Origin: a virus
Length of the DNA stretch: 55,242 nucleotides
Direction: 5' to 3' (one strand)
Virus record (IMG/VR): IMGVR_UViG_3300045988_053272
Shown here: positions 2,745 through 55,050 of the stretch, piece after piece
Position numbering within the stretch: the stretch's first letter is position 1
Layout of the letters: the number at the start of each line of letters is the position of its first letter
Translations under genes and position numbers: made by a program
Notes under the pieces: model-generated
What the model was told of the DNA's origin: nothing
Seen by the model: the letters and a program-made list of their open reading frames with translations, nothing else
The model's database searches: none

Positions 2745-3005
2745 TTAACGCTTGCTATGTATATCCGCGCCGGTGCGCGTCTTGACTCTGGTCTCCTTGT
2801 TTTCCTCTCGGATCATCAGGTCTGACAGCTCGCACCCCAGCGCCTCACAAATAAGATCCAGATGCTCCAGGTTTACCCTTTCTGCGATCTCATGGTACAG
2901 GTCATTGATCGTCGAAGGTCGAATGCCTGTTGCCCTTGCAAGGTCAGCTTGTGACCACCTCCGCTCGCCAAGCCGGGTGGACAGTAAAATCCTAATCATA
3001 GCCAT
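2745..3005 (-). CDS. XRE-family helix-turn-helix regulator (86 aa)
   Basis: HTH pattern WSQADLARATGIRPSTINDLYHE. Confidence 0.8.
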   Translation of the reverse strand: MAMIRILLSTRLGERRWSQADLARATGIRPSTINDLYHEIAERVNLEHLDLICEALGCELSDLMIREENKETRVKTRTGADIHSKR

Positions 3006-3142: not shown

Positions 3143-4819
3143 TTATTCTTCCGCGTCGAGCGGACAGACCAAAACGAAGACTCCGCCGACCATATAGATT
3201 GCAGAGATAGGAGCAGAGCCAGGCGACCTCTCGGTTCGTCTGGCTCTGCTTTGGTGGCTCAAAGTGGAGCTAAGACGAACACATGACGCCTCGTCATCTA
3301 TGCTGTCTATGACATCTTCCAGCGGGATCTCAATCGTATTCTTATCACCGGCAAAGCTGAACACAATTTTCACGCGGTTATCGTCGTATAGATAGGCCGC
3401 AACAAGGAATGTGTCAAACAGTCCAGCTTGATACTTCTTGTCATGCACATCTCCCTCGCGCAAGCTACGGAGCCATTCGACGAGTCTTTCCCGATTGGTA
3501 GGCACAATAGCCGCTTTTGCAGCGCATATCTTCCCTTCTATGGCGGTGCGCTCTGCTTCCAACTCCATTAAACGGCCTTTCGTAGTCTCCGTGATAATAC
3601 CCTTCTCAATTGCCGACATGACATTCTTTATGCTGCGGTTAACTTCTGCGAGTTGATCCTCAAACACGCTAAGGTGACTTTCTGACACTCTACGATCATG
3701 ATCTTCTACGCAACTATCCGCGATCCATTCGATTATGTCATCTTTAAGTGCGTAGTCCCTGATTGCCTTTGCTATTTTCAGCTCGATCACATCGCGGCGA
3801 ACATTCTTCTTGTGGCAGGTTTTCTCAGTCCGCCTCTTTTGGCAGACGTAGTAGAAGTGCAGCTTCCCTGCCCGGCCTGTGCCGGAGATGCCGGTCATGG
3901 GACTTTTGCAATGCCCGCAGAACAGCTTGCCGGTGAGAAGATAGTCACCATTGACGCGGTGACGCCCTTGTGGATTTTTCTTCGTGGTAATCGCCTCCTG
4001 GACCTTGAAGTAGAGTTCATCGCTGACGATCCTCGGGATGCCGCCCTCAATGCGGACATCGCCGTAGATATAAATGCCGCGGTATCTCTCGTTGGAAAGG
4101 ATCTTCTGAAAGCTCGACCGCCCCCATGGGCGACCGTACGAGGTTGTAATGCCTCTGGCATTTAGGCTGCTCATAATATCCACGAACGCCTCGCCGCAGG
4201 AAACTCGTGTGAAGATCTCCCGGATAACCGCCGCCCTTGGCTCGTCGATGGCATAGTGCAGCGTTTCGTCTGCTTTATAGCCGTAGGGCAGATGGCCGTT
4301 CGTCACCATGCAATTTGCGGCGTTGTCGTACAGACCGCGCTTGATGTCCTCGGCCATGTTCTCGGAATAGAACTGGTTGACATTCATCATCGAGCGGGCA
4401 GCGAAGCGTCCGGCCGCAGTATCGTCGAAATCCTCCTCCACATAGAGAACACGGACACCCAACTCCTGAAACCGTGCTTCGTTGACAAGAGCTTCCAGCA
4501 TATTGCGGCCTATACGGTTGGACTTCCACGCAAGCACATAGCGGAACTTCCCTTTTGCGGCATCGGCCATCATACGCTGAAAATCCACCCGCTTGTCTGT
4601 GCGACCGGAAACGGCACGGTCGGCATAGGTGTCGATGATCCTGATGCCATACTCCGCCGCCAGCTCATAGCATTTCTCAAACTGCTGTTCAATGCTGATG
4701 TCTTTCTGGTTGTGGCTGCTGTACCGACCGTAGAGAACGCCTGGCTCTTCGATTTCCAGCTTCTTGCCCCGCTTCGGCTTCGCCGGGTGCTTTGCAGGTT
4801 TTCTCGGCAACAGCGCCAC
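3143..4819 (-). CDS. int: Large serine recombinase (phage integrase), 558 aa
   Basis: N-terminal resolvase-type catalytic region (YGRYSSHNQ...), a recombinase domain and a zinc-ribbon (CGHCKSPMTG ... YYVCQKR). GTG start at 4819. Confidence 0.9.
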   Translation of the reverse strand: MALLPRKPAKHPAKPKRGKKLEIEEPGVLYGRYSSHNQKDISIEQQFEKCYELAAEYGIRIIDTYADRAVSGRTDKRVDFQRMMADAAKGKFRYVLAWKSNRIGRNMLEALVNEARFQELGVRVLYVEEDFDDTAAGRFAARSMMNVNQFYSENMAEDIKRGLYDNAANCMVTNGHLPYGYKADETLHYAIDEPRAAVIREIFTRVSCGEAFVDIMSSLNARGITTSYGRPWGRSSFQKILSNERYRGIYIYGDVRIEGGIPRIVSDELYFKVQEAITTKKNPQGRHRVNGDYLLTGKLFCGHCKSPMTGISGTGRAGKLHFYYVCQKRRTEKTCHKKNVRRDVIELKIAKAIRDYALKDDIIEWIADSCVEDHDRRVSESHLSVFEDQLAEVNRSIKNVMSAIEKGIITETTKGRLMELEAERTAIEGKICAAKAAIVPTNRERLVEWLRSLREGDVHDKKYQAGLFDTFLVAAYLYDDNRVKIVFSFAGDKNTIEIPLEDVIDSIDDEASCVRLSSTLSHQSRARRTERSPGSAPISAIYMVGGVFVLVCPLDAEE

Positions 4820-16770: not shown

Positions 16771-17955
16771 ATGCGGCAGCCGCCGCCTCTCGGGAGCCGG
16801 ACATGGAAACCCGAGGAAGAAGATTATTTGATGGAAAAGTGGGGGCAGATTTCTGTTCCGGCCATCGCAAAGAAACTCAATCGTACCACAAACGCCGTCA
16901 AGGTCAGAGCTCAGCGTCTGGGTTTAGGCGCGGTATTGATGGCTGACGAGTATGTCACTCTAAATCAACTCCTGCTGGCGGTGAACGGAGGAAGCAGCTC
17001 CTACGGCTACAAAATGAAAAGCTGGGTCGAAAATCGCGGCTTGCCCGTCCACACAAAAAAGGTCAACCGCTGCAGCTTTCGGGTGGTCTACATTGAAGAG
17101 TTCTGGGAGTGGGCCGAGCGATACCGCAGCTTCATCGACTTTTCCAAAATGGAGCCGTTGGCGCTCGGCGAGGAGCCGGGCTGGGTAGCCGAGCAGCGCA
17201 AGAAAGACCTTGAGGCATACGCCATTCAGAGGAAAGACCCGTGGGGAGAGGACGAGGACTCTCGGCTGAAGATGCTGCTCAGTAAGCACAGGTACTCATG
17301 GGCGGAAATTTCCGAGATGATGCATCGTTCTCACGGTGCGATCGCGCGCCGTTGTCGTGACCTCGGCATCAAGGACCGCCCCGTTTCGATGGAGCTGACC
17401 GGAAAGCGCGGCACATGGACCAGCGAGGATTTTGAAATACTGGCAGACGGCATCCGCCACGGCGACAGCTACGCCGCCATAGGCAAGGCGGTCGGCCGTT
17501 CCGAAAAGTGCGTCCGATCCAAGGTCTACAACGATTATCTGACCGAGAACGCCGACAAGGTGCGGGAAATGCTCGGTGATGGCGCGTGGGGGCACGGTGC
17601 GCCGGAAATGGACGTCCGTCATGGCTTCTATATCTCCCGCACCCGCCATCAGGTCAGGCGCGACCTATCCGCGCTGGCAACGGTCATTCGTAAGCGCATG
17701 AACGATCTCGGCTATGATCCTTACTGGCAGCGGTTTATGTGCATGAATTGGGACGACATTGGCGGATGCTCCGCAGGGTGTACGGATTGCGACAGCTGCA
17801 CAGCATTCCGGCGTATTCAGCCTCAGTATTGCGCACGGTGCGGCGGCACCTTCTACGAGCGCAAGGAAAACCGCTTCTGTGCGGCCTGCCGCACCGCGAG
17901 GAAGAAGCAGGCCCAGCGGCACTGGTGCCGCGTGAACGGCATGAGCCGAAGATAA
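16771..17955 (+). CDS. Myb/SANT-repeat DNA-binding protein with Cys-rich C-terminus (394 aa)
   Basis: Three W-x-EED-type repeats (RTWKPEEEDYLMEKWG, DPWGEDEDSRLKMLLSK, GTWTSEDFEILADGI). C-terminal CSAGCTDCDSC ... CARCGG ... CAAC. Confidence 0.6.
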   Translation: MRQPPPLGSRTWKPEEEDYLMEKWGQISVPAIAKKLNRTTNAVKVRAQRLGLGAVLMADEYVTLNQLLLAVNGGSSSYGYKMKSWVENRGLPVHTKKVNRCSFRVVYIEEFWEWAERYRSFIDFSKMEPLALGEEPGWVAEQRKKDLEAYAIQRKDPWGEDEDSRLKMLLSKHRYSWAEISEMMHRSHGAIARRCRDLGIKDRPVSMELTGKRGTWTSEDFEILADGIRHGDSYAAIGKAVGRSEKCVRSKVYNDYLTENADKVREMLGDGAWGHGAPEMDVRHGFYISRTRHQVRRDLSALATVIRKRMNDLGYDPYWQRFMCMNWDDIGGCSAGCTDCDSCTAFRRIQPQYCARCGGTFYERKENRFCAACRTARKKQAQRHWCRVNGMSRR

Positions 17956-18005
17956 TAAACAGTCCCAGCCGAGGGGCAAAGCTCGGCGTAAGAAAGGAGC
18001 GTTTT

Positions 18006-19376
18006 ATGGCAGAAATCAAGTACATTCCGGTCAGTAAACTGTGGGGGCATCCCGATAACCCCCGTAAGGACCTGGGCGATGTGACCGAGCTGGCCGAGAG
18101 CATCAAGGTCAACGGCGTACTCCAAAACCTCACCGTTGTTCCGCTGATCGGGGAAATCACAAAGAAGTGGGACGGAGAAAGCTACCGCGTCATCATCGGC
18201 CACCGCCGTCTTGCGGCCGCAAAGCTGGCCGGTCTGGAGGAGCTTCCCTGCGTCGTGGTCGAGATGTCGGAGCGGGAGCAGCTGAGTACGATGCTCACGG
18301 AGAATATGCAGCGGTCCGATCTGACGGTCTACGAACAGGCACAGGGCTTCCAGATGATGCTTGACATGGGCGATACCGTCGAGGACATCGCGGAAAAGCC
18401 CGGCTTTTCCGCTACCACCGTCCGGCGCCGCGTAAAGCTCCTGGAGCTGGACAAGGATAAATTCAAGAAGTCCGAGGAGCGCGGCGTCAGCTTGTTCGAT
18501 TATATGGAGCTGGACAAGCTGAAAAGTCCGGAGCGCAAAAATGAAATGCTCGATTTTATTGGCACCGATAATTTCAAGTACAAGCTGAAACAGGCCATCG
18601 ACGCCGAAGCCGCGGACGAGCGTAGGGCTTCGTGGGTGGAGCGGTTAAGCTCCTTTGCGACGCAGGTCACCGACAGAACTGGCTATAAGTTCGCCAGGAG
18701 CTTCTATGTCAACAGCGAGGTCAATGTAGAACGCCCGGAGGACGCAGATACCGTCGAGTATTTCTTCATCGTCGAAACGTACTATATCACGCTGATGACC
18801 AAGGACGCACCGACCACCCTCACTCCAGAAGAGGAAGCAAAAAAGCGTGAGGAGCAGATGAATCAGGAACGAAAGAATGCTGCTGAAAAGGCGTTGTCCG
18901 AAGCAACCGCCCGCGCCTACGAGCTTCGCGCCGACTTCGTGGCTACCGTTTCCGCAGCTGCCATCAAAAAGCGCCTTGTGGACATCGTAGCGCTGTGGGC
19001 CTACGCCGAATACTGGGACGATACCAGTTGGCTCACCGAAGAGGAAATCGCACAGGCTACCGGCGCCGAGACCCTTGCCGAAGATGGCGAGGACGGCGAG
19101 GACGATGCCGCATTTACGCTCCAGGCCGTGACCGACGCGATCGGCAAGACGCCTGAAAAGGCGCTCCTGCGAATGATCTATGCGCGCCTGGGTGACGGAA
19201 AGTCCGAGGGCTATTTCCGCAGCTACTGGAACAGCTACACCATGAAGCATGAGGAAAACGAGAAGTTGGACCGCATCTATGCGTTGCTCGTCAAGCTGGG
19301 CTACGAGATGTCCGACGATGAAAAGGCGCTTCAGGACGGAACACATGAGCTTTTCGGGGAGGCGACCGGCGAATGA
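18006..19376 (+). CDS. ParB N-terminal-domain protein (456 aa)
   Basis: ORF 17739..19376 trimmed to ATG 18006 (AGAAAGGAG RBS). YIPVSKLWGHPDNPRK ... VIIGHRRLAAAKLAG. Confidence 0.8.
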   Translation: MAEIKYIPVSKLWGHPDNPRKDLGDVTELAESIKVNGVLQNLTVVPLIGEITKKWDGESYRVIIGHRRLAAAKLAGLEELPCVVVEMSEREQLSTMLTENMQRSDLTVYEQAQGFQMMLDMGDTVEDIAEKPGFSATTVRRRVKLLELDKDKFKKSEERGVSLFDYMELDKLKSPERKNEMLDFIGTDNFKYKLKQAIDAEAADERRASWVERLSSFATQVTDRTGYKFARSFYVNSEVNVERPEDADTVEYFFIVETYYITLMTKDAPTTLTPEEEAKKREEQMNQERKNAAEKALSEATARAYELRADFVATVSAAAIKKRLVDIVALWAYAEYWDDTSWLTEEEIAQATGAETLAEDGEDGEDDAAFTLQAVTDAIGKTPEKALLRMIYARLGDGKSEGYFRSYWNSYTMKHEENEKLDRIYALLVKLGYEMSDDEKALQDGTHELFGEATGE

Positions 19377-21826: not shown

Positions 21827-22008
21827 TGCTCGTCATCACCGTTCATGTGAACGCTCCGGCGGGGCAGGCCATTGGCATAAAGGAGCAGATTGCTCAGGAT
21901 TTGGAGCGATACGGCGATACCCGCGTGGTATCGGTGGAAGTAATACAGCCGACATACCGGCAGATGCAGATCGGAGAGGTCAGCGACCGGCAGCGCGGCA
22001 AAAAGTAA
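21823..22008 (+). CDS. Hypothetical protein (61 aa)
   Basis: ORF in track. ATGA overlap. Confidence 0.45.
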   Translation: MMLVITVHVNAPAGQAIGIKEQIAQDLERYGDTRVVSVEVIQPTYRQMQIGEVSDRQRGKK

Positions 22009-22046
22009 GAACAGGTAAGGGGTGAGCCATTACGACGCTTTCAGAG

Positions 22047-22424
22047 TTGAATCAGCACTTCGAGCTGATAGAGAAATTGGCAAGGGCAAGGGAGATGCTA
22101 CAGTCCTTGCGTGACGCGGCTTGCCCCGGCGCGGCTGTTCTCACAGGTATGCCGCATACTCCCGGCATAAAGGATAAGGTCGGCGACCTCGCAGCCGAAA
22201 TCGTGGACATGGATGCGCGTGTCGGCTTTCTGGAGGAAGAGGTCAAGGCCAGCGAGGGGCAGATCATGCCGTTCATTCAAGGCATCGACGATGACCAGAC
22301 GCGCCTGATCTTCCGGCTGCGCTTCCTGAGAGGGCTCGCATGGAAAGAGGTCGCAGCGGTCATAGGAGGCCGCAATTCGGAGGATTCGGTAAAGATGGTG
22401 TGTTACCGCTACCTCGGTAGTTAA
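22047..22424 (+). CDS. Sigma-70 region-4-like late-gene activator (DUF1492/RinA-type position), 125 aa
   Basis: LTGMPHTPG...DDDQTRLIFRLRFLRGLAWKEVAAVIGGRNSEDSVKMVCYRYL. Last regulator before the packaging genes. TTG start. Confidence 0.6.
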   Translation: MNQHFELIEKLARAREMLQSLRDAACPGAAVLTGMPHTPGIKDKVGDLAAEIVDMDARVGFLEEEVKASEGQIMPFIQGIDDDQTRLIFRLRFLRGLAWKEVAAVIGGRNSEDSVKMVCYRYLGS

Positions 22425-22654
22425 AAGCTGTTCTTCGCTGTTGCAACTCGTTTCTTGATATTCCCCGCACCATGTATTAGGATTAGACTCGTAAAATCCT
22501 ACATAAGCCAGGCGGCCATCCCTCGCGGGGTGGCCGTCATTCGTTTGGGAAGGAGGTTGAGGCCTGCGCGTTACTCCTTGCGCGCCGGTCATGCGCCGGG
22601 TCCGATGTTCGCCAGCAGAGGGCAGCGGTGACATCATAAAAGGAGATTTCCAAA
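22425..22654 (+). promoter_or_regulatory. 230-nt leader of the cargo operon with promoter-like hexamers and hairpins
   Basis: TTGATA (22455-22460), 17 nt, TAGGAT (22478-22483). Hairpin GGCGGCCA/TGGCCGTC (22511-22538). AAGGAG (22550-22555), CTCCTT (22574-22579) and the true SD AAGGAG (22640-22645). Confidence 0.5.
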
Positions 22655-24037
22655 ATGTTCGGAATTGTCATTCTGGCCGTCTATGCGGTGCTGATGATCG
22701 GCGTCACGCTGATGTTCACCCGAAAGACGACCGACGCAGAGGGCTTCCATGTGGCGGACCGGCGCATCGGCTCGGCGATTGCCGCCATGAGCATCGCCGC
22801 CACTTGGATTTGGGCTCCCTCACTGTTCACTTCCTCGGAGATGGCCTATACGCGCGGCATCCCGGGGATGTTCTGGTTTACGGTACCGAATGTGCTGTGC
22901 CTGATCCTGTTTATCCCCTTTGCAAAAAGGATCCGGGCGCAGTACCCGGAGGGCATCACCTTGACCGGCTACATGGCGGAGCGCTATCACTCCGGCAAGG
23001 TCAAGGGCGTCTACTCCTTCCAGCTCGGCGCGCTGGCCGTTCTTTCAACGGCGGTGCAGCTGCTCGCCGGGGGAAAGACGCTGGCTCTCATTACGGGGCT
23101 GCCATTCTGGAGCATGACGCTCGCCCTGGCAGCTATCGCATATTCCTACTCCCGCTTCTCCGGGCTGAAAGCCTCCATCATCACCGATGTCGTCCAGCTG
23201 GGCATTATTCTCATGGGTGGCGCTCTGCTGGTCGTTCTGAGCCTTCGCATGACCGGCGGCTTTGACACGGTACGGGCAGGGCTTGGTGCTGTCTCCGGAG
23301 AATATACTTCGCTCACCTCCTCCACGGGCATTGAGGTCCTGCTGGGCTACGGTCTGCCGATGGCTGTCGGTCTGATCTCCGGCCCGTTCGGGGATCAGTG
23401 CTTCTGGCAGCGAGCTTTCGCAATCAGGCGCGACCGCATCGGCAGATCGTTTTTTGCCGGTGCGCTTTTGTTTGCGCTCGTTCCGATCTGCATGGGAACG
23501 GTGGGCTTCCTCGCCGCTGGATCCGGCTTTGTGGCCAGCGACACCGGCATGGTCAACTTTGAATTCGTTTCCTCGCTGCTTCCGACATGGGTGCTGGTCC
23601 CGTTCCTGTTTATGATTATCTCCGGCCTGCTCTCCACAGTGGATAGCAACCTTTGCGCGGCAGCGTCGCTCACGACAGACTGGCTCGGCATTGGGAAGGA
23701 CACGGTGCAGACTTCGCGCCGCACCATGCTTTGCCTGCTGATCGTGGCTATCGCCATCGCCAACATTCCCGGCCTGACGGTGACATACCTGTTCCTGTTC
23801 TACGGAACGCTCCGCGCTTCGACGCTGCTGCCGACGGTCATGACGTTGCTCGGTAAGAAGCTAACGGGCAAAGGCGTTTTTGCCGGTGTGCTGACCGCGC
23901 TGTGTGTCGGGCTTCCGATCTTCGCCTACGGCAATCTCGCCGGCATTCCGGCTGTGAAAGCGGCAGGCAGTCTGACGACCGTCCTGTCCAGCGGCCTTGT
24001 CGCCGTTATCGCCTCGAGAAAGGCGGTGAAGGCATGA
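22655..24037 (+). CDS. Sodium:solute symporter family (SSF) permease, 460 aa
   Basis: About 12-13 hydrophobic segments. N-terminal SSF-type pattern EGFHVADRRIGSAIAAMSIAATWIWAPSLF...AYTRGIPG. Confidence 0.75.
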   Translation: MFGIVILAVYAVLMIGVTLMFTRKTTDAEGFHVADRRIGSAIAAMSIAATWIWAPSLFTSSEMAYTRGIPGMFWFTVPNVLCLILFIPFAKRIRAQYPEGITLTGYMAERYHSGKVKGVYSFQLGALAVLSTAVQLLAGGKTLALITGLPFWSMTLALAAIAYSYSRFSGLKASIITDVVQLGIILMGGALLVVLSLRMTGGFDTVRAGLGAVSGEYTSLTSSTGIEVLLGYGLPMAVGLISGPFGDQCFWQRAFAIRRDRIGRSFFAGALLFALVPICMGTVGFLAAGSGFVASDTGMVNFEFVSSLLPTWVLVPFLFMIISGLLSTVDSNLCAAASLTTDWLGIGKDTVQTSRRTMLCLLIVAIAIANIPGLTVTYLFLFYGTLRASTLLPTVMTLLGKKLTGKGVFAGVLTALCVGLPIFAYGNLAGIPAVKAAGSLTTVLSSGLVAVIASRKAVKA

Positions 24038-24816
24038 GCCTCGGGAGGAAGCAGAGTATCGACAACAGTGCATGGCTGGAAGCCGTTGCAACTATCGAAG
24101 AAGCCGTTTCCCGCGCAGAGCTGGACGAACTTACTGCCGCGACCGTGGCGGACATCAAGGCCGTGACGGCTGGGAAGTGCGCTGCCTACGCATGGAGCGC
24201 TGGTAAGGACAGTATTGTCCTTGGCAAACTTTGTGAAGCGGCCGGCGTCACCGATAGTATGATCGGCGTGTGCGACCTGGAATACCCCGCCTTTGCCGCG
24301 TGGATCGAGGAGCATAAGCCGGCAGGCTGCGAAGTCATCAACACGCATCAGGACATCGACTGGCTGGTGAAGCATCAAGAGATGCTTTTCCCCAAGGACT
24401 CCGCCGCGGCCGGACGATGGTTTTCTATCGTGCAGCACCGAGCGCAGCGTGAATACTTCAGGGCGCACGAGCTGGACGTCATCATTCTCGGCCGCCGCCG
24501 TGCGGACGGCAATTATGTCGGTCGCAACAGCAATATCTATACCGATGGCAAAGGTGTGACGCGATTCAGCCCGCTCGCTGCGTGGAAGCATGAGCACATC
24601 CTTGCCTATATTCACTACCATCAGCTCCCGCTTCCGCCGATCTACGGCTGGAAGAACGGATATCTGTGCGGCACTCACCCGTGGCCCGCCCGCCAATGGA
24701 CGGGCAGCATCGAGAACGGCTGGCGCGAGGTCTACGATATCGACCCCGGCATCGTCCTTGCGGCAGCTGAAAAGATCGACAGCGCTCGCGCCTTCTTGAA
24801 GGGGGTGCAGGCATGA
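24034..24816 (+). CDS. PAPS-reductase-family PP-loop ATPase, copy 1 (260 aa)
   Basis: ORF 23902..24816 trimmed to ATG 24034 (ATGA overlap with the permease stop). PP-loop AWSAGKDSIVL. CysH-like tail FSPLAAWKHEHILAYIHYHQLPLPPIYG. Confidence 0.8.
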   Translation: MSLGRKQSIDNSAWLEAVATIEEAVSRAELDELTAATVADIKAVTAGKCAAYAWSAGKDSIVLGKLCEAAGVTDSMIGVCDLEYPAFAAWIEEHKPAGCEVINTHQDIDWLVKHQEMLFPKDSAAAGRWFSIVQHRAQREYFRAHELDVIILGRRRADGNYVGRNSNIYTDGKGVTRFSPLAAWKHEHILAYIHYHQLPLPPIYGWKNGYLCGTHPWPARQWTGSIENGWREVYDIDPGIVLAAAEKIDSARAFLKGVQA

Positions 24817-25418
24817 AGGTCATAAAGAAGCCTCTGACCGAGCTGCGGCGACCGGATCGGAATGTCCGAATGCACACCGACAAGCAGCTGAAGGAGTTCC
24901 GCCGCTCTGTCGAAATGTTCGGTCAGATCCGCCCCATCGTGGTCGATGAGGACGGCGTTATTCTCGCCGGCAACGGCTTATACGAAACGCTGCTCTCCCT
25001 CGGCCGCACAGAAGCGGACTGCTATGTTGTGTCCGGGCTGACTGAGGCAGAGAAGAAAAAGCTCATGCTGGCCGATAACCGCGTCTTTGACCTGGGCGTT
25101 GACGATTTGGCTGCGCTGGACGCTTTTATCCTCGACCTGAAAGACGACCTGGACATTCCCGGCTACGAAGAGGATCTTCTCCGTGCGATGGTGATGGAGG
25201 CTGACGAAGCCAGCGACGCCCTGCTTGAGTACGGCACCATTGAGCCGGAGCAGGCTGCGGCCATCACCGAGACGCGCGAGAAATACGCCGCCCGGGAAGA
25301 AGCTGCTGCGGCGCAGGCTGAGGAAGTCGCACCAGCACAGAGCGGCACGGCGTCTTCCACCGAGCCCGCTAAGAGGTTTATCCTCTGCCCGAAATGTGGT
25401 GAGCGGATATGGCTGTAA
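24813..25418 (+). CDS. ParB/Srx-fold protein, copy 1, degenerate Arg motif, C-terminal zinc ribbon (201 aa)
   Basis: LRRPDRNVRMH...FGQIRPIVVDEDGVILAGNGLYETLLSLG, where GNGL stands in the position of GHGR/GHRR. Ends in CPKCGERIW. ATGA overlap. Confidence 0.7.
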   Translation: MKVIKKPLTELRRPDRNVRMHTDKQLKEFRRSVEMFGQIRPIVVDEDGVILAGNGLYETLLSLGRTEADCYVVSGLTEAEKKKLMLADNRVFDLGVDDLAALDAFILDLKDDLDIPGYEEDLLRAMVMEADEASDALLEYGTIEPEQAAAITETREKYAAREEAAAAQAEEVAPAQSGTASSTEPAKRFILCPKCGERIWL

Positions 25419-26563
25419 AGCGCATCAGCTCAGACATCGACGTTGTGACTGCGGCGCGCCAGCGGATCAAGAATGTATTTTCCAACGGCGTCCCCGTATA
25501 CCTCTCGTTTTCCGGCGGCAAGGACAGCATCGTTCTCGCCGACCTGACCTATAAGCTGATCCAGGCCGGAGAGATCAATCCCTCGCAGTTGACCGTCCTT
25601 TTCGTGGACGAGGAGGCAATCTTCGATTCCATTGAAGCAACGACCAAGGCGTGGCGGAAGAAGTTCCTGCTTGCCGGCGCCAAGTTTCAATGGTGGTGCA
25701 TCGAGGTCAAGCATTTCAGCTGTCTCAATGAGCTGTCCAGCGATGAAACCTTCGTCTGCTGGGATCGGCGCAAGCGCGATGTCTGGGTGCGGCAGCCGCC
25801 GCCCTTTGCCATCCGCAATCACCCGCAGCTCCGGCCAAGGATCGACAACTATCAATCCTTCCTGCCCCGCGTGACGATGGACGGCATCATGATCACCGGC
25901 GTCCGCGCGGCAGAGTCCATTCAGCGGCTCCAATACATGGCGGCACTGAATATGGGCGCAAAGGGCATCACCGGCACGAACACCATCTATCCCATCTACG
26001 ACTGGAAGACGGCGGACGTCTGGCTGTACCTGCGAGACCAGCGCATCGAAGTCCCCGAGGTCTACCTGCAGATGTATCAGGTCGGCGTCAATCGGAATCA
26101 GCTGCGCGTGTCGCAGTTCTTCTCTGTTGATACCGTACCCGTGCTGGTACACCTGGGCGAATATGACCCATCGCTCATGGAGCGCGTCCTTCGGCGTGAG
26201 CCGAACGCATACCTTGCCATGCTGTACTGGGACAGCGAAATGTTCCACCGCACCACAAGGAAGCGCCGGGAGCTGGAGGGTGAGGACACCAAGGACTACC
26301 GTGCGCTCCTGAAGGAGATGCTGTTCGTCCGTCCGGGAGACTTCTTCAACACGGAGCATAAGCGCAAGATCGCCAAGCAGTACCGCAAGATGTTCATTCA
26401 GATGGACGGAATGGCTCGGCCGCGCGACTACAAGAAAATGTACGGCGGTCTGACTGCTGGTGATCCCAAGCTCCGCACCCTGCGCGCCATCTATCAGGAC
26501 ATATCCTGCGCCTACGCTGATTACGCCAAGCGCTTCCGGAAGGGAGGTGAGGCAAATGGCTGA
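25409..26563 (+). CDS. PAPS-reductase-family PP-loop ATPase with long C-terminal extension (IbrA/DUF3440-like), 384 aa
   Basis: PP-loop LSFSGGKDSIVL ... IYPIYDWKTADVWLYL. A 190-aa C-terminal extension. 10-nt overlap with the preceding gene. Confidence 0.8.
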   Translation: MAVKRISSDIDVVTAARQRIKNVFSNGVPVYLSFSGGKDSIVLADLTYKLIQAGEINPSQLTVLFVDEEAIFDSIEATTKAWRKKFLLAGAKFQWWCIEVKHFSCLNELSSDETFVCWDRRKRDVWVRQPPPFAIRNHPQLRPRIDNYQSFLPRVTMDGIMITGVRAAESIQRLQYMAALNMGAKGITGTNTIYPIYDWKTADVWLYLRDQRIEVPEVYLQMYQVGVNRNQLRVSQFFSVDTVPVLVHLGEYDPSLMERVLRREPNAYLAMLYWDSEMFHRTTRKRRELEGEDTKDYRALLKEMLFVRPGDFFNTEHKRKIAKQYRKMFIQMDGMARPRDYKKMYGGLTAGDPKLRTLRAIYQDISCAYADYAKRFRKGGEANG

Positions 26564-27080
26564 CGCGGATTTGTTCGCCCCGTTATCCTCCCTGCAATGG
26601 GTAGACCGGGAGCAGCTCAAACCCAATGACTACAACCCCAACAAGGTCAACCGCGAAAATCTGAAACTGCTGGTGCAATCGATCATGACCAATGGCTGGA
26701 CGCTTCCCATCGTTGTGCGTCCCGACTACACCATCATCGACGGCTTTCACCGCTGGACCGTGGCCGGAGAGGAGCCGCTGCACACCATGCTCAAAGGCAA
26801 GGTGCCGGTGGTAATCGTGCGGCATGATGACGCGACCGAGGATATTTACGGCACCGTCACACACAACCGCGCTCGTGGTACACATCTGCTTGAGCCGATG
26901 AAAGCCATCGTAAAGCGGCTGCTGGACGAGGGCAAGTCCGTTCAGGAGATCGGCAAACAGCTCGGAATGAAACCCGAAGAAGTATTCCGGCTCGCTGATT
27001 TCTCGCGTGATGACTTCCTCGGCATGATGACCAAGGGCGTTAAGGGGTATAGCCATGCGGAATTGCTGACGAAGTTATAA
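26556..27080 (+). CDS. ParB/Srx-fold protein, copy 2 (IbrB-like), 174 aa
   Basis: ORF 26460..27080 trimmed to ATG 26556 (8-nt overlap). LKPNDYNPNKV ... IIDGFHRWTVAGE ... HTH-like SVQEIGKQLGMKPEEV. Confidence 0.75.
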   Translation: MADADLFAPLSSLQWVDREQLKPNDYNPNKVNRENLKLLVQSIMTNGWTLPIVVRPDYTIIDGFHRWTVAGEEPLHTMLKGKVPVVIVRHDDATEDIYGTVTHNRARGTHLLEPMKAIVKRLLDEGKSVQEIGKQLGMKPEEVFRLADFSRDDFLGMMTKGVKGYSHAELLTKL

Positions 27081-27656
27081 CACAATACCACAGCCAGGCG
27101 CATACATCGCACGAGAGCGGCGTATCTGCGTCTGGCTGTGTTGCGCCCTCCCCCTCTCGGCATCGTCGCGCTGAGGGCGGGGAAATGCGTTGCAACAGGC
27201 GACGACGGCAAAAGGTACTGTGACGACCCCCGCCCCACACGCCGCGGGCTCGCCGACCCCGAAAAAAGCGTAGTTACCAAGGCAAAATTTTGGCATTTCC
27301 GTTCCGCTTTGGCGTTGCTTTTGGTGCCAAGCGCGGCACCTGTGGCGGTACCTGCCGCAATCCCCCATCGCTTTATCCGTCTTTCTCCGCGGGAATGTGG
27401 AGGAAGTCCAGATAAAGGCCTCCTATGTAATATAAGACCACGCGCGGGATAAGGGTCTCGCACAGAGCTGCTGGTACCGGCCTGTGTGCTCCAGTGCAAT
27501 TCTGGTGAGTCCCGCATTCGGACACAAAAAAAGACCCGACTGCTGGAACAGTCAGGTCTTGCGCCCTCGGGCGATATGGTTTTGCACTATCGATACCATA
27601 TCACAATTTACGCAGACAGTCAAGCCGGCTGGACTGCGCAAGGAAGGAGGAGCGCC
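27081..27656. other. 576-bp non-coding, highly structured region upstream of terS; probable cos / late-leader region
   Basis: No plausible ORF. Long hairpin at 27089-27140. Competing GC pairings at 27143-27235. G-rich tract GAGGGCGGGGAAATGCG (27173-27189). Palindromes GGTGCC/GGCACC (27322-27339) and TGTGGCGGTACCTGCCGCA (27341-27359). Confidence 0.6.
27526..27560 (-). terminator. Rho-independent terminator oriented for the minus strand
   Basis: Stem AAGACCCGACTG / CAGTCAGGTCTT (27531-27560) is preceded on the plus strand by A7 (27526-27532). This gives a U7 tail only for a minus-strand transcript. Confidence 0.7.
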
Positions 27657-28217
27657 ATGTCTGAAGCTATTGATGTCATTACCGAGGAAACGGAGGTAAG
27701 CACGACAGAGCTGGCCTGCGTCCTGGGCATCACAGGACGGCGCATTCGCCAGATGGCGGAGGACGGTCAGCTGCAAAAGGTCAGCAAGGGGCGCTTCCTC
27801 CTTGCCGATTCCGTCCAGCGGTATGTTAAGTTCCTGTCCGACGGCCCGATGGACGAAGAGGATAAGAAGCTGGAGAAGACCCGCCGCGTGGCGGAGACGA
27901 CGATGAAAGCGTCCAAGGCCACCATCGCCAAGCTGGAGGCCGAGGAGCTGAAAGGTACCATGCACCGTGCGGAGGACGTTGCCGCGCTGACGGAGGATCT
28001 GGTCTACACCATTCGCGGTGCGCTCAATGCGCTGCCGGGGCGGCTGGCCGTCGATGTAGCGGCTGTGTCCACGCCTGCCGAGGCGTCCGAGGTTATCCGC
28101 AAAGAGGTCAGCAAGGTCATGCGGGAGCTGGCCGGGTATCACTACGACCCCAAGAAATACGAGGAGCGCGTGAGAGAACGGCGCGACTGGTCGGAGCGTG
28201 ACAGCGATGACGAGTAG
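27657..28217 (+). CDS. terS: Terminase small subunit (186 aa)
   Basis: ORF 27486..28217 trimmed to ATG 27657 (GGAAGGAGGAG RBS). N-terminal HTH TTELACVLGITGRRIRQMAEDGQL. Immediately upstream of terL, overlapping it. Confidence 0.7.
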   Translation: MSEAIDVITEETEVSTTELACVLGITGRRIRQMAEDGQLQKVSKGRFLLADSVQRYVKFLSDGPMDEEDKKLEKTRRVAETTMKASKATIAKLEAEELKGTMHRAEDVAALTEDLVYTIRGALNALPGRLAVDVAAVSTPAEASEVIRKEVSKVMRELAGYHYDPKKYEERVRERRDWSERDSDDE

Positions 28218-30129
28218 GCTCGCCGCCGTCCGGCTGAACAAGGTCATCGCCAAAGCGATGGCCGGTATGCTCCCGCCGGACGACCTGACCGTAACCGAAT
28301 GGGCGGAGCAGAATCGCCGCCTGTCGGCCGAGAGCGCCGCAGAGCCCGGACCGTGGCGCACCGAGCGCACCCCCTATCTCCGCGAGCCGATGAACGCATG
28401 GACCGACCCAAAGATACGGCACATCGTCATGGTGGCTGCGTCCCAGGTCGGTAAGTCTGAATTTCTCAATAACTGCATCGGCTATGTGATCGACCAGGAC
28501 CCCGGCTCGATCCTGTTTGTCCACCCTACCACCATTGACGCAAAGGAGTATTCCAAGCTCCGCATCGCGCCGATGATCCGCGACTGCCCCACGCTGCGAA
28601 AGAAGGTCAGCGACCCCAAGAGCCGTGACAGCGGCAATACAATTCTGCAAAAGACCTACCCCGGAGGCATCCTCACGATGTGCGGCTCCACCGAGGCCCA
28701 CGCTCTGGCGTCAAAGCCTATCCGCTATGTGCTGGGCGACGAGCGCGACCGCTGGGCGCTGTCTGCCGGTAACGAGGGCGACCCGTGGGATCTGGCGATG
28801 GCGCGGCAGACGACATTCTACAACGCGAAAAGCGGTGAGGTGTCCACGCCCACCGTCAAAAACGCCAGTGCCATCGAAGCCGCCTACGCGACAGGCACGA
28901 TGGAGCGGTGGAAATCCCGCTGCCCTCATTGCGGCGAGTATCACGAGATCCAATGGGCGGACATCCGCTTTGAGCATGACGAGATCATCGTCGCGGGGAA
29001 AAAGACCTACAAGGTCCGCAGCGTCTGCTATGCCTGCCCCGGCTGCGGCTGCATCTCCACCGAGGCGGAAATGAAGCGCGCCCCGGCAAGATGGGAGGCG
29101 GACAACCCCGCCGCCTATGAGCAGGGCACGCGCTCGTTCTGGCTGAACGCCTTTGTCAGCCAGTGGGCGAGCTGGGAATCCATCATTCTGAAATACCTGA
29201 ACGCCATCGGCAGTACCCGCAAGATGCAGGTCGTCTACAACACCTGCTTCGGCGAGCTGTGGGAGGATCGCGGAGACCTGGAGGACGAGGACAGTCTGAT
29301 GGCGCGCAGGGAGGAATACCCCGCCGAGCTGCCGGAGGGCGTGCTTGTTCTGACGGCCGGTGTCGATACCCAGGACGACCGCATGGAATACGAGATCGTC
29401 GGCCATGGCCACTTTGGTGAGACCTGGGGCATCGAGAAAGGCATCGTCATGGGACGACCCGACGACGATGCCGTATGGGCGCAGCTGGACGAGCTGGTAT
29501 TTGACCGTGTTCTGCGCTTTGAGAACGGCGTGGGGCTGAAAATGTCAATGTCCTTTGTGGACGAGGGCGGACACTTCACGCAGGAGGTCCGTATGCAGTG
29601 CCGGGCGCGGCTGGGCAAAAAGGTGTTCTGCATCAAGGGTATGCCCGGCAGCGATAAACCATACACCGCGCCGCCGAAAAAGCAGAAGATCATCATCAAG
29701 CAGACGGCGGTCGGCACCTGCTGGCAGTACCAGATCGGCGTTGACTCCGGCAAGGAGGTCATCATGGACAACCTGCGCGTACAGACGCCGGGCGCGAAAT
29801 ATTGTCACTTCCCCAAGCGGGATGACTACGGCTCCGGCTACTTCACAGGGCTGCTCTCCGAGGTCAAGGTCTACGACCCCAACAAAAAGCAGCCGTGGCA
29901 GTGGAAGAAGATCCCCGGCCACGAGCGCAACGAGGCGCTGGACTGCCGCAACTACGCGCTGGCGGCGTTCAAGGCGCTTCCTAAGAACCTGGACGAGATA
30001 GACAGGCGGCTAAAGGAGGCGGGCGGCGAACGCACTCCTGCCCCTGTTGCAACGCCTGTCATGCCGCCTCCCGCCGCCAAGCAGAGGCCGAAGCGCAGAA
30101 GCAGAAAGAAATACTACGACGATTGGTGA
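28207..30129 (+). CDS. terL: Terminase large subunit, lambda GpA family (640 aa)
   Basis: TVTEWAEQNRRLSAESAAEPGPWRTERTPYLREPMNAW...VMVAASQVGKSE (Walker A). Size and order match lambda gpA. Confidence 0.9.
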   Translation: MTSRLAAVRLNKVIAKAMAGMLPPDDLTVTEWAEQNRRLSAESAAEPGPWRTERTPYLREPMNAWTDPKIRHIVMVAASQVGKSEFLNNCIGYVIDQDPGSILFVHPTTIDAKEYSKLRIAPMIRDCPTLRKKVSDPKSRDSGNTILQKTYPGGILTMCGSTEAHALASKPIRYVLGDERDRWALSAGNEGDPWDLAMARQTTFYNAKSGEVSTPTVKNASAIEAAYATGTMERWKSRCPHCGEYHEIQWADIRFEHDEIIVAGKKTYKVRSVCYACPGCGCISTEAEMKRAPARWEADNPAAYEQGTRSFWLNAFVSQWASWESIILKYLNAIGSTRKMQVVYNTCFGELWEDRGDLEDEDSLMARREEYPAELPEGVLVLTAGVDTQDDRMEYEIVGHGHFGETWGIEKGIVMGRPDDDAVWAQLDELVFDRVLRFENGVGLKMSMSFVDEGGHFTQEVRMQCRARLGKKVFCIKGMPGSDKPYTAPPKKQKIIIKQTAVGTCWQYQIGVDSGKEVIMDNLRVQTPGAKYCHFPKRDDYGSGYFTGLLSEVKVYDPNKKQPWQWKKIPGHERNEALDCRNYALAAFKALPKNLDEIDRRLKEAGGERTPAPVATPVMPPPAAKQRPKRRSRKKYYDDW

Positions 30130-51037: not shown

Positions 51038-51163
51038 GTTTTTCTTTTTGACTGGCGCGGGCTTTCCCTCACCGCTTGGTGAAAATATTGCCGCATAGGA
51101 CGGGGTTAAGTAGGCTTCGGCTCGAACAATCTCGCAGGCAAACAAGGACGGAGGGAAAATCCT

Positions 51164-52261
51164 ATGCCGAAACGAGTCGGCTATCTCTACGACAAGATGG
51201 TTGACCGGGACTTTATCCGCAGCGTCATACAGGAGGCGGCTAAGGGGCGTCGGAACAGGCGAGACATCGCCCGCGTACTGGCGGACCTTGACGGATACGT
51301 CGAAAAGACCTACGAGCTTGTTGCAACGGAGAGCTTTGTGCCATCCGCGCCGAAAGTGCGTGAGATCTATGACGAGAGCAGCGAGAAGTACCGGAAGATC
51401 AAAATGGTCCCGTTCTGGCCGGACGGCGTGATTCAGTGGATGCTGGTGACGGCCATGAAACCGGTACTCATGCGCGGAATGCACCCGTGGTCCTGCGCGT
51501 CCATCCCTGGGCGCGGTGGGAAGCGAATTCACAAGAAGATCCGTGGCGCGCTCCGCAATGATCCGAAAGGGACGAAGTACGCCGCCGAGCTGGACGTCGC
51601 ACAGTATTACCCCAGCATCTCCGGCAAGCGGCTGATCTGGGCGCTGGCGCGGAAGATCAAGGACAAGCGCTTTCTGCGGACGGTCTATTCCATCATCGAA
51701 TCCTGCGGCGGCGGGCTGGCTATCGGGTATTACATCTGCCAATGGCTGGCAAACTTCTACCTGGAGTCTCTGGACCAGTACATCATGACGCTGCCGGGCG
51801 TGAAGTATATGACCCGCTACATGGACAACATCACCCTACTCGGGCCGAATAAGAAGCATCTGCACAAGGCGCGGAAGCTGATCGCCGCATTCATGCAGCA
51901 GCGGCTCGGCCTGTCCATGAAAGCGAACTGGCAGATCTATCCCACGGCAAAGCGCATGGTGAGCGCGGTCGGCTACCGCTTTTCCCGCACTCATGTCATT
52001 CTGCGCAAGCGGAATTTCCTGCGCTTCACCCGGCAATGCCGCCGCGTCAAGAAACGGCTTGACGCCGGGAAGCCTATCATGTTCGCCCAGGCCTCCGGGC
52101 TACTGAGCCGCGCCGGGCAACTGAAACACTGCAATAGTCATACAATTCGGGTGAAGTACATTGACCCGATTGGAGTAAAACACCTGAAGGAGGTCGTGCG
52201 AAATGAGAGTAAGAGGCGACAACGCGCCCAGCAACGCATTCTCGCTGGAGGAGCAGCCTAA
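51164..52261 (+). CDS. DGR-type reverse transcriptase (365 aa)
   Basis: RT motifs including AELDVAQYYPSI, LAIGYYICQWLANFYL (the IGxxxSQ position) and RYMDNITLLG (the YxDD position, here YMDN). Adjacent to the TR. Confidence 0.85.
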   Translation: MPKRVGYLYDKMVDRDFIRSVIQEAAKGRRNRRDIARVLADLDGYVEKTYELVATESFVPSAPKVREIYDESSEKYRKIKMVPFWPDGVIQWMLVTAMKPVLMRGMHPWSCASIPGRGGKRIHKKIRGALRNDPKGTKYAAELDVAQYYPSISGKRLIWALARKIKDKRFLRTVYSIIESCGGGLAIGYYICQWLANFYLESLDQYIMTLPGVKYMTRYMDNITLLGPNKKHLHKARKLIAAFMQQRLGLSMKANWQIYPTAKRMVSAVGYRFSRTHVILRKRNFLRFTRQCRRVKKRLDAGKPIMFAQASGLLSRAGQLKHCNSHTIRVKYIDPIGVKHLKEVVRNESKRRQRAQQRILAGGAA

Positions 52262-54999: not shown

Positions 55000-55050
55000 A
55001 AAGCCCCCTCGCAGGATTTTACCGTCCTGTCGAGGGGGCTTTTCTATTTT
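55000..55050 (+). terminator. Rho-independent terminator ending the rightward late operon
   Basis: AGCCCCCTCG ... CGAGGGGGCT 10-bp stem followed by TTTTCTATTTT. Confidence 0.8.

Follow-up and report, generated by a model that had tools for sequence, protein, structure and literature searches.

We analyzed a 55,242-nt viral record of IMG/VR (IMGVR_UViG_3300045988_053272; hereafter, the window means this whole stretch), in which five genes on the + strand, at 22655-27080, form a tightly packed cassette (Table 1). It encodes a sodium:solute symporter family (SSF) permease (g1), two PP-loop ATPases of the PAPS-reductase family (g2 and g4), and two ParB-like proteins (g3 and g5). The five same-strand open reading frames (ORFs) and the four overlapping junctions that were described in an earlier note, made from the sequence alone, are all in place: g1/g2 and g2/g3 are joined by ATGA overlaps at 24034-24037 and 24813-24816, g3/g4 overlap by 10 nt (25409-25418), and g4/g5 by 8 nt (26556-26563). 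The cassette is an accessory set that heads the late (packaging) operon of a temperate Taranis-like Oscillospiraceae prophage. Among the explanations that we weighed, a phage DNA-modification module using an imported small molecule is the best supported, and we propose it tentatively.

Table 1. Features of the cassette, its leader, and its flanks in the window
Feature	Position	Strand	Description
g1	22655-24037	+	SSF-family permease, 460 aa
g2	24034-24816	+	small PAPS-reductase-family PP-loop ATPase, 260 aa; optional cassette member
g3	24813-25418	+	orphan ParB-like module, 201 aa; type fused to phage DNA methyltransferases
g4	25409-26563	+	IbrA-like PP-loop ATPase, 384 aa; helical C-terminal extension
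g5	26556-27080	+	IbrB-like ParB/Srx-fold protein, 174 aa
Candidate late activator or antiterminator	22047-22424	+	125 aa; upstream flank, outside the cassette
Sigma-70-type promoter-like site	22455-22483	+	-35 TTGATA, 17-nt spacer, -10 TAGGAT
GTAAAATCCTA motif	22491-22501	+	at the predicted transcript start; consensus GTAAAATYYTA
P1	22511-22548 (hairpin 22511-22538)	+	GC-rich terminator-like hairpin and T-rich tail
Pseudo-Shine-Dalgarno GGGAAGGAGG	22547-22556	+	complementary to the P2 loop
P2 hairpin	22561-22588	+	loop CUCCUU at 22574-22579, anti-Shine-Dalgarno-like
TTCGCCAGCAG leader element	22608-22618	+	TCGCCA conserved in most leaders
Shine-Dalgarno of the permease gene, AAAGGAGA	22639-22646	+	read from the sequence; kept before the start codon in all leaders
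terS (small terminase subunit)	27654-28217	+	phrog_57, E 3e-28; downstream flank
terL (large terminase subunit)	28198-30129	+	phrog_15, E 2e-236; downstream flank

The coupling of a transporter to PAPS-reductase and ParB genes, proposed in the earlier note for this one locus, recurs widely. A scan of IMG/VR for the SSF permease gave 169 stretches, of which 80 (57-100% identity) were kept for examination; a further 80 IMG/VR loci were kept for the membrane protein that heads the cassette in Faecalibacterium phage FP_Taranis; and a scan of 185,579 bacterial species genomes gave 107 stretches with the permease family, 80 of which were examined. Directly downstream of the SSF permease, (g2)-g3-g4-g5 follows in the same order in 80 of 80 IMG/VR loci wherever the contig continues, even on backbones whose terminase is not recognizably related. 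The same is true of g3-g4-g5 downstream of the Taranis-type protein (80 of 80 wherever the contig continues; g2 is there too in about one-fifth), and the cassette is kept in all 80 bacterial-genome loci wherever the sequence continues downstream. These bacterial carriers include Oscillospiraceae, Lachnospiraceae, Ruminococcus, Anaerotruncus colihominis DSM 17241, a Clostridioides difficile chromosome, and Treponema metagenome-assembled genomes. Altogether, the co-occurrence across phages and prophages is seen in 160 viral and 80 bacterial loci, so the lack of conserved linkage that the earlier note had named as grounds for refutation is not observed. The linkage also persists where the genes are rearranged or the backbone is another one. 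Locus L346, a phage that has WhiB and Prim-Pol and differs in its terminase, carries a permease 45% identical to g1 and the four cassette families in a changed order, ParB (phrog_620)-SSF (phrog_20720)-IbrA (PAPS_reduct and DUF3440)-ParB (phrog_2159)-terS, and the complete five-gene order recurs in another phage whose permease is 39% identical to g1. The arrangement, recurring in hundreds of independent contigs, is far beyond chance, and, judged by this gene order, the cassette genes form one functional unit. Its most conserved gene is g5, with 65-92% identity where g1 has 57-60%.

Cultured, inducible carriers exist, e.g., Faecalibacterium phage Pioen (PMC11792537), and prophage carriers include Dysosmobacter segnis BX15, to one of whose permeases g1 is 100% identical, Anaerotruncus colihominis DSM 17241, Agathobaculum desmolans ATCC 43058, and Acetatifactor muris DSM 23669; such carriers make the question of function open to experiment. 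Isolates assigned to different genera (L263-L269), with Dysosmobacter segnis, Agathobaculum ammoniilyticum, Yanshouia hominis, Faecousia intestinalis, and Hominicoprocola fusiformis as hosts, have permeases 99-100% identical to g1, and in L263 (Dysosmobacter segnis) the entire cassette is 96-100% identical to that of the window. Identity of this degree across genera suggests a broad host range or a very recent spread of the phage. Separately, in Flavonifractor-type prophages, a weak Mom-like gene and an N6_Mtase gene stand upstream of the cassette (L261 3908-4357 and L260-L262 26-886), so some such phages carry several DNA-modification genes.

The four genes downstream of the permease had been parsed as two consecutive, duplicated pairs, and this parse we reject. 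The match shared by g2 and g4 is limited to 76 N-terminal residues (E 1e-4), that between g3 and g5 has an E-value of 0.012, the four proteins (g2 to g5) fall in different PHROGs (424, 620, 2302, and 2159), and g2 is optional. In a count over 196 distinct g4 sequences for which sufficient DNA upstream was available, those headed by an SSF permease have g2 in 114 cases and lack it in nine, those headed by a Taranis-type protein have it in 17 and lack it in 50, and the six without an upstream membrane protein all lack it. That is, g2 is present in 131 of 190 transporter-linked cassettes, absent from 59 of the 190, and found in none of the six transporter-less ones. g3, by comparison, lies upstream of g4 in 190 of 190 transporter-linked cassettes and comes after g5 in some transporter-less ones. 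The conserved core is the trio ParB (g3)-IbrA-like (g4)-ParB (g5), which in phages of gut Clostridia is joined to the permease g1 and usually also to g2; the confinement of g2 to cassettes with a transporter is suggestive only. Outside this group, mycobacteriophage GlenHope has a ParB...PAPS-reductase-ParB trio next to its terminase without a transporter, and Streptococcus phage CHPC1230 has a PAPS-reductase/IbrB pair after the lysis genes.

The cassette as a whole is dispensable. In L237 (IMGVR_UViG_3300000114_000219), which has the same backbone, it has been lost, and the leader is followed by a 159-aa gene without known function and a 60-aa remnant of the g5 C-terminus. The terL of L237 is 1035 aa long and appears to hold an intein-like insertion. 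Four transporter-less loci (L190, L207, L246, and L247) show a different variation: the start codon behind the leader opens a mini-ORF of 20-22 aa, in ATGA overlap with the IbrA-like gene, which could be what is left of a vanished transporter gene, or else a peptide for coupling; the gene order in L190 and L207 is g4-g5-g3. Two further variants were seen, a metagenomic 555-aa ORF (P0123) in which g4 and g5 are fused (PAPS_reduct and ParB_N) and which may be a true fusion or a frameshift artifact, and a deletion in L033 (8383-9425) that joins g2 residue 212 to g5 residue 38 and removes g3 and g4.

Both ATPases belong to the PAPS-reductase family, as the earlier note had read them: g2 matches Pfam PAPS_reduct at 38.9 bits (E 1e-9) and phrog_424 (E 8e-27) and has the PP-loop SAGKDS, whereas g4 matches PAPS_reduct at 49.8 bits and phrog_2302 (E 1e-85, over residues 1-363) and has the PP-loop SGGKDS. 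Both loops are canonical and conserved across homologues, which were aligned from the fetched loci (28-29 for g2, 27 for g4; 45-100% identical to the window proteins). By the models and motifs examined, neither enzyme is an ordinary assimilatory CysH or a DndC. Against the curated NCBIfam models for CysH, APS reductase, CysD, and DndC, g2 and g4 reach 17-36 bits where the cut-offs are 154-413, e.g., 26 vs 154 (NF002537) and 20 vs 254 (TIGR02057) for g2 and 21.5 vs 154 (NF002537) for g4 with CysH, whose models give 19-26 bits at cut-offs of 154-254, and 23.5 vs 290 with DndC (TIGR03183). The C-terminal ECGLH catalytic motif is in neither sequence, the alignment to CysH structures stops before that motif, and the homologue alignments have no invariant cysteine. 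The g4 residue C97 is kept by 90% or more of the homologues and recurs in the CHPC1230 IbrA, and a cysteine cluster for an Fe-S center was not found. PADLOC matches g4 locally to BrxP (E 5e-13) and to DndC (E 3e-8), over residues 156-219 only.

The second ATPase had also been assigned an extension of the IbrA/DUF3440 type. The long C-terminal extension is there, but Pfam DUF3440 (PF11922) is not detected in g4 at E<=1; for its relative in the L246 cassette, the score is 23.4 and the cut-off 25. A likeness to IbrA appears by other routes: phrog_2302 also holds DUF3440-bearing members, such as that of L346, and BLASTP aligns g4 with the DUF3440-bearing IbrA of CHPC1230 (E 5e-25), the alignment extending into its DUF3440 region. 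AlphaFold models of g2 and g4 have pLDDT (predicted local distance difference test) values of 90 and 74, respectively. The best Foldseek matches of g2 are PAPS/APS reductase, TtuA, the ATP-PPase domain of GMP synthetase, CysD, and FAD synthase; taken together, the fold matches of g2 and g4 are to generic ATP pyrophosphatases only, including TtuA, NcsA, TilS, GMP synthetase, CysD, FAD synthase, and LarE, with no DndC- or SspD-like match for either protein and no fold match for the C-terminal helical domain of g4. From the conserved SxGKDS loops and these fold matches, g2 and g4 look like adenylating enzymes.

The ParB/Srx-fold assignment of the two partner proteins holds firmly for g5 and less so for g3. 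g5 matches Pfam ParB_N (PF02195) at 33 bits against a cut-off of 26.3 and phrog_2159 at E 3e-70, has the invariant motifs DGFHRW and NRARGTH, and, as expected of an IbrB-type ParB/Srx protein, is encoded directly after the IbrA-like g4. With 12.3 bits, g3 is below the PF02195 cut-off and is ParB-like by PHROG and BLASTP evidence: phrog_620 (E 1e-44), phrog_498, a DNA methyltransferase family (E 5e-27), PADLOC MTase_II (E 2e-15), and a BLASTP match to the N-terminus of a ParB-N6_N4_Mtase protein (E 1e-10). It has an invariant KKLMLADN and a C-terminal CPKCG. These matches make g3 a homologue of the N-terminal ParB module that phages carry fused to DNA methyltransferases, its closest likeness.

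The first gene is indeed an SSF permease, with a PF00474 match of 79.1 bits against a cut-off of 22.8 (E 4e-22, residues 31-413 of 460) and a phrog_20720 match at E 5e-171. Among solved structures, DUR3 (E 1e-23) and CHT1 (E 6e-18) come nearest, and the family profile matches DUR3, CHT1, vSGLT, SGLT1/2, SMVT, and NIS. g1 is below the NCBIfam cut-offs of the named subfamilies (PanF, 53 vs 328; PutP, 52 vs 515; ActP, 28 vs 750), has no score above cut-off for VC_2705, and reaches 117 against the 184 of the sss superfamily model. Two routes to the substrate were tried and given up. Homology (NCBIfam, PDB sequence and profile searches, and the names of relatives) yields only the generic labels "Na+/proline symporter" and "urea-proton symporter," and the gene contexts of distant relatives are mixed, with molybdopterin oxidoreductases or a 2-oxoglutarate oxygenase with a deaminase. 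DUR3 and CHT1 carry small nitrogenous solutes (urea and choline), and this kinship would suit an amine nucleophile as the imported solute, which we offer only as a lead. The SSF subfamily of g1 comprises 245 clusters at E<=1e-30; its members other than the phage-linked ones are cellular and stand in unrelated contexts, so the subfamily is not confined to phages. One cellular relative, 41% identical (L343, a Logan contig of SRR22388143), is flanked by a LysR regulator on one side and by two molybdopterin oxidoreductases on the other, and another SSF gene is close by. This context is a hint that catabolic molybdoenzymes are supplied by the cellular members of the subfamily.

In Faecalibacterium phage FP_Taranis, a 333-aa polytopic membrane protein with at least seven predicted transmembrane segments (gp35; L001 5017-6018) takes the place of g1 and is followed by g3-g4-g5. 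No Pfam or PHROG family was found for this protein. In about 150 viral contigs (examined in L083-L162), the cassette begins with it instead of an SSF permease. A profile-profile comparison with SSF gives 190 collinear columns (23% probability, E 9e-4), and the SSF segment that it weakly resembles is the N-terminal two-thirds; the Taranis protein may be a divergent, shortened SSF relative rather than an unrelated, convergent transporter.

The 230-nt leader upstream of g1, which the earlier note had regarded as the cassette's own, turned out to be more general, as the same leader stands before ParB-N6/N4-methyltransferase genes in other phages. Across divergent phages, the order is promoter, GTAAAATYYTA, P1 with its T-tail, pseudo-Shine-Dalgarno GGAAGGAGG, P2, TCGCCAGC, and the real Shine-Dalgarno, and loci with either type of membrane protein have this layout. 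The -35/-10 pair is found in 22 of 25 non-redundant leaders, where the -10 ends 6-8 nt before the GTAAAAT motif; within the motif itself, 7 of 11 positions are invariant in 18 diverse leaders, and a -10-like TAAAAT falls at about +2 to +7. The pseudo-Shine-Dalgarno is nearly invariant and the P2 loop CTCCT is invariant; RNAalifold pairs AAGGAG with CUCCUU (96% of cells paired). Our covariation analysis used 18 leaders, with the window row one column off in P2 and so counting against the structure. It found that 86% of cells pair, versus 41-56% with slid 3' partners; that double-sided changes occur in 36 cells, versus 14 +/- 3.5 in shuffles (0 of 500 reach 36); and that 5 of 6 counted P1 pairs and 5 of 7 P2 pairs have compensatory changes. 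A search of 22000-22800 against Rfam, with E-values up to 10 allowed, brings up nothing relevant. The possibility of a riboswitch as a clue to the ligand was therefore dropped; since the leader is general and also precedes methyltransferases, it says nothing about the substrate.

An IMG/VR pattern scan for this leader before other cargo found it ahead of ParB_N+N6_N4_Mtase fusions (L197 and L199), ahead of IbrA-like genes without a transporter (L246, and L190/L207 after the mini-ORF), and ahead of the unrelated gene of L237. We read it as a structured late-operon leader common to phages with different cargo, and it may be, by analogy, a Q-like antitermination leader combined with Shine-Dalgarno control. 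The likeness to lambdoid PR'/Q is one of layout: a regulator gene, a promoter, a -10-like element in the first transcribed bases, an intrinsic terminator, and then the late genes. The window's upstream protein, on the other hand, is not shown to be homologous to Q, and lambda is without the pseudo-Shine-Dalgarno/anti-Shine-Dalgarno hairpin. Further copies of the GTAAAATCCTA motif were seen, the window having five matches where 0.8 are expected: at 2984-2994 (+), near the recombinase gene and followed by ATCATAGCC...GCTCCTTT like the start of the leader; at 51154-51164 (+, one mismatch), just before the reverse-transcriptase gene; and at 55012-55022 (-, one mismatch). These copies could serve the same regulator as additional promoters or operators.

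As to the flanks, the placement of the block between a late activator and terS stands firmly on its downstream side, where terS and terL, of the lambda GpA type, follow. The gene upstream, of 125 aa, is only weakly regulator-like, with 42% identity to the "RinA-like transcriptional activator" of FP_Taranis, a match to phrog_36 (transcriptional regulator) at E 6.7e-6, and no match in a Pfam search. The base composition and third-codon-position GC content of the cassette match those of flanking phage genes, so it did not enter recently from a foreign source. Between g5 and terS, no promoter- or terminator-like site is predicted on the + strand; co-transcription of the cassette with the packaging genes is therefore probable, and the cassette would be expressed late. 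Since the same leader precedes ParB_N+N6_N4_Mtase fusions, to whose ParB module g3 is homologous, the cassette occupies what we call a DNA-modification slot.

Our proposal of a DNA-modification module rests on the linkage, the adenylating motifs, the methyltransferase-type ParB, the methyltransferase-equivalent position, the late timing, and the dispensability of the cassette. A mechanism that takes up the observed gene content, motifs, strict synteny, late-operon position, and slot equivalence with the ParB-methyltransferases would run as follows. Late in infection, the ParB-like proteins would engage replicated phage DNA, the presumed target, and recruit or activate the IbrA-like enzyme, which would adenylate an oxygen on the target, as other PP-loop ATP pyrophosphatases do, so that a nucleophile could displace AMP. 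The permease would import the small molecule that supplies the added group, and g2, where present, might pre-activate or process it. The outcome would be a covalent mark on phage DNA just before packaging, presumably against host restriction. DpdB and DndB are ParB homologues that partner DNA-modifying enzymes. A further precedent is a phage ParB that is needed for the action of a thymine dioxygenase on double-stranded DNA (PMC13229309). A more specific version, in which the modification is an undescribed one, the added group being a gut-derived small molecule brought in by the phage's permease and the IbrA-like enzyme adenylating a base or backbone oxygen with ParB-like adaptors directing it to DNA, is possible, and we regard it as doubtful.

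Several points weigh against this proposal. No modified base, DNA-binding, or catalytic activity has been shown for any member of the family, the direction of transport is assumed, and g1 fits no characterized SSF subfamily. Our sample is biased, as most loci were fetched with a transporter query, which also makes the zero of six for g2 without a transporter a weak figure. Mycobacteriophages, Streptococcus phages, and some Clostridia phages have the core but no transporter, so an imported substrate is not intrinsic to the chemistry. g3 is without the arginines of the ParB CTP-binding motif GxxRxxA (the position reads GNGLYE). In record annotations, E. coli IbrA/IbrB are named for an effect on gene expression and not for DNA modification, and phage PAPS-reductase-like genes are still treated as unexplained (PMC11437467; 10.64898/2026.02.18.706556).

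Known systems resemble the cassette in parts. The closest parts are those of IbrA/IbrB (COG3969; E. coli islands and many phages): the PHROGs of g4 and g5 include pairs with a bona fide DUF3440, the ParB partner is directly downstream and overlapping, g4 aligns with the CHPC1230 IbrA, and GlenHope has the same ParB...PAPS-reductase-ParB-terminase layout. The window's g4, however, is without Pfam DUF3440, and the permease, the additional PP-loop ATPase, and the methyltransferase-type ParB of the cassette go beyond such pairs; the resemblance is one of parts, not of a known mechanism. The ParB-N6/N4 methyltransferase fusions have the same ParB module as g3 and, in L197 and L199, the same leader and slot before terS, but theirs is an S-adenosylmethionine-dependent methyltransferase fused to ParB, whereas here a separate PP-loop ATPase is coupled through the 10-nt overlap. 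The analogies with Dnd, Ssp, type 4 BREX, and Dpd, on which the earlier note leaned, did not survive. DndC, SspD, and BrxP share the PAPS-reductase-family PP-loop fold, and g4 has its local PADLOC matches, and Dnd systems include the ParB-like DndB; the DndC model is nevertheless far from being reached, and the five cassette genes include no cysteine desulfurase, DndD/E, SspB/C, or BREX genes (the rest of the window was not scanned exhaustively). In the Dpd 7-deazaguanine pathway, the ParB-like ATPase DpdB works with a DNA-modifying enzyme and some phages carry a precursor transporter (PMC6884629), but none of the libraries used finds a DpdA/TGT-like transglycosylase or preQ0 genes among the five cassette genes. 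The known phage precursor transporters (YhhQ, for preQ0) of 7-deazaguanine phages are uncorrelated with the pathway (PMC6884629). Finally, the 5mYOX thymine dioxygenases offer a phage ParB homologue that has no obvious DNA-binding domain and activates its cognate enzyme on double-stranded DNA (PMC13229309), although the enzyme is an Fe(II)/2-oxoglutarate dioxygenase rather than a PP-loop ATPase and 5mYOX has no transporter.

Five other explanations were considered. The target might be something other than DNA, i.e., a small molecule, the nucleotide pool, or tRNA, modified with an imported compound and, for instance, rewiring late host metabolism or translation. The nearest folds of the enzymes do act on small molecules and tRNA (FAD synthase, CysD, GMP synthetase, LarE, TtuA, NcsA, and TilS) and cellular permease relatives sit beside catabolic molybdopterin oxidoreductases, but two ParB-like proteins are obligatory, g3 is homologous to a methyltransferase-linked ParB, and the slot is common to DNA methyltransferases; we place this explanation on the unlikely side. 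Slightly further in that direction, prophage defense or self-marking is unlikely. Host and prophage DNA would be marked in a Dnd- or BREX-type-4-like manner, or infection sensed, with the membrane protein as supplier or effector, and such a role would suit a temperate prophage with a serine recombinase, the PADLOC matches of g4 to BrxP and DndC, and the finding of PAPS-reductase and ParB genes in candidate defense operons (10.64898/2026.04.06.716658). Those matches, however, span only about 60 residues, with the DndC model far below its cut-off; the cassette has no nuclease, effector, restriction partner, cysteine desulfurase, DndD/E, or BREX core genes; and, downstream of a terminator-like hairpin near the promoter, it opens the packaging operon in a slot that elsewhere holds a ParB-methyltransferase. 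A role in gene expression is what the name "co-activator of prophage gene expression IbrA/IbrB" implies, borne by the RAST-derived annotations of the Taranis and CHPC1230 homologues. The proteins would then regulate late or host transcription, possibly in response to a ligand, and the cassette does adjoin a candidate late activator and a complex leader. It lies downstream of that leader, though, and does not control it; the canonical, conserved PP-loop points to catalysis; the cassette is lost or swapped for a methyltransferase while the late operon is retained; and a nucleic-acid modification could indirectly underlie the E. coli phenotype. We consider this role distinctly improbable.

Less probable again is a part in DNA packaging, in which ParB-like nucleases and an ATPase would assist the terminase at cos, as HNH proteins do in some cos phages. 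The trio is immediately upstream of the terminase in the window, Taranis, GlenHope, and L346, but L237 retains an intact terS and terL without the cassette, the IbrA/IbrB pair of CHPC1230 comes after the lysis genes, and the permease has no evident packaging role while terS is separately present; all this makes the idea very unlikely. The least supported explanation, which we hardly expect to hold, is the usual one of virome papers (10.1101/2021.01.05.425418; 10.64898/2026.02.18.706556), namely, that these are auxiliary metabolic genes of sulfur assimilation, with g2 and/or g4 CysH- or CysD-like and the permease importing a sulfur source. It agrees with the PAPS_reduct matches of both enzymes, with the PHROG label "auxiliary metabolic gene" for the families, and with the alignment of g2 GYLCGTHPWPARQW with the CysH segment GYLSVGDTHTTQKW. 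Against it stand the scores far below the cut-offs of the NCBIfam CysH, APS-reductase, and CysD models, and the missing ECGLH motif and invariant cysteine, with a PP-loop of the canonical ATP-pyrophosphatase form. The cassette, moreover, is without other sulfur-assimilation genes, its obligatory partners are ParB-like DNA proteins, and the permease is of the SSF and not of a known sulfate permease family.

Phage PAPS-reductase/ParB (IbrA/IbrB-like) modules are already known and annotated and are uncharacterized; recent papers call phage PAPS-reductase genes puzzling or suggest an anti-defense DNA modification. In the literature searched (IbrA/IbrB, DUF3440, COG3969, PAPS reductase with ParB, and Taranis), functional studies were not found, and neither the permease linkage nor the optional second PP-loop gene nor the common leader is described, in line with the earlier note, which knew of no described system coupling a transporter to duplicated PAPS-reductase/ParB pairs. 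PAPS-reductase-like genes are among the commonest "auxiliary metabolic genes" of gut viromes and are routinely read as sulfur metabolism; if that is wrong for the family, many such interpretations would need revision. The permease linkage across many lineages indicates that the enzymes in these phages work with a transported solute, and the slot shared with ParB-methyltransferases points to DNA as the target. Were the DNA-modification proposal true, it would give the widespread IbrA/IbrB (PAPS-reductase/ParB) family its first biochemical function and would make the chemical identity of a phage genome dependent on compounds available outside the cell.

Elsewhere in the window, the genes are those of a temperate phage with a serine recombinase (3143-4816, -) and a reverse transcriptase of a probable diversity-generating retroelement. 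A third ParB homologue (17739-19373; 545 aa, ParB_N and HTH_ParB, phrog_6218) lies in the early or replication region and has a homologue at an equal relative position in Taranis and the Flavonifractor prophages. The only gathering-level Rfam match in the window is an RT-18 RNA (RF03021) at 51070-51149, with 65 bits against a gathering score of 41, directly upstream of a 365-aa reverse transcriptase (Pfam RVT_1); the two, within 51070-52258, are probably the diversity-generating retroelement. Such a retroelement has been reported for Taranis-like Faecalibacterium phages. A 902-aa ORF at 47969-50677, without a Pfam match, could be its target gene.

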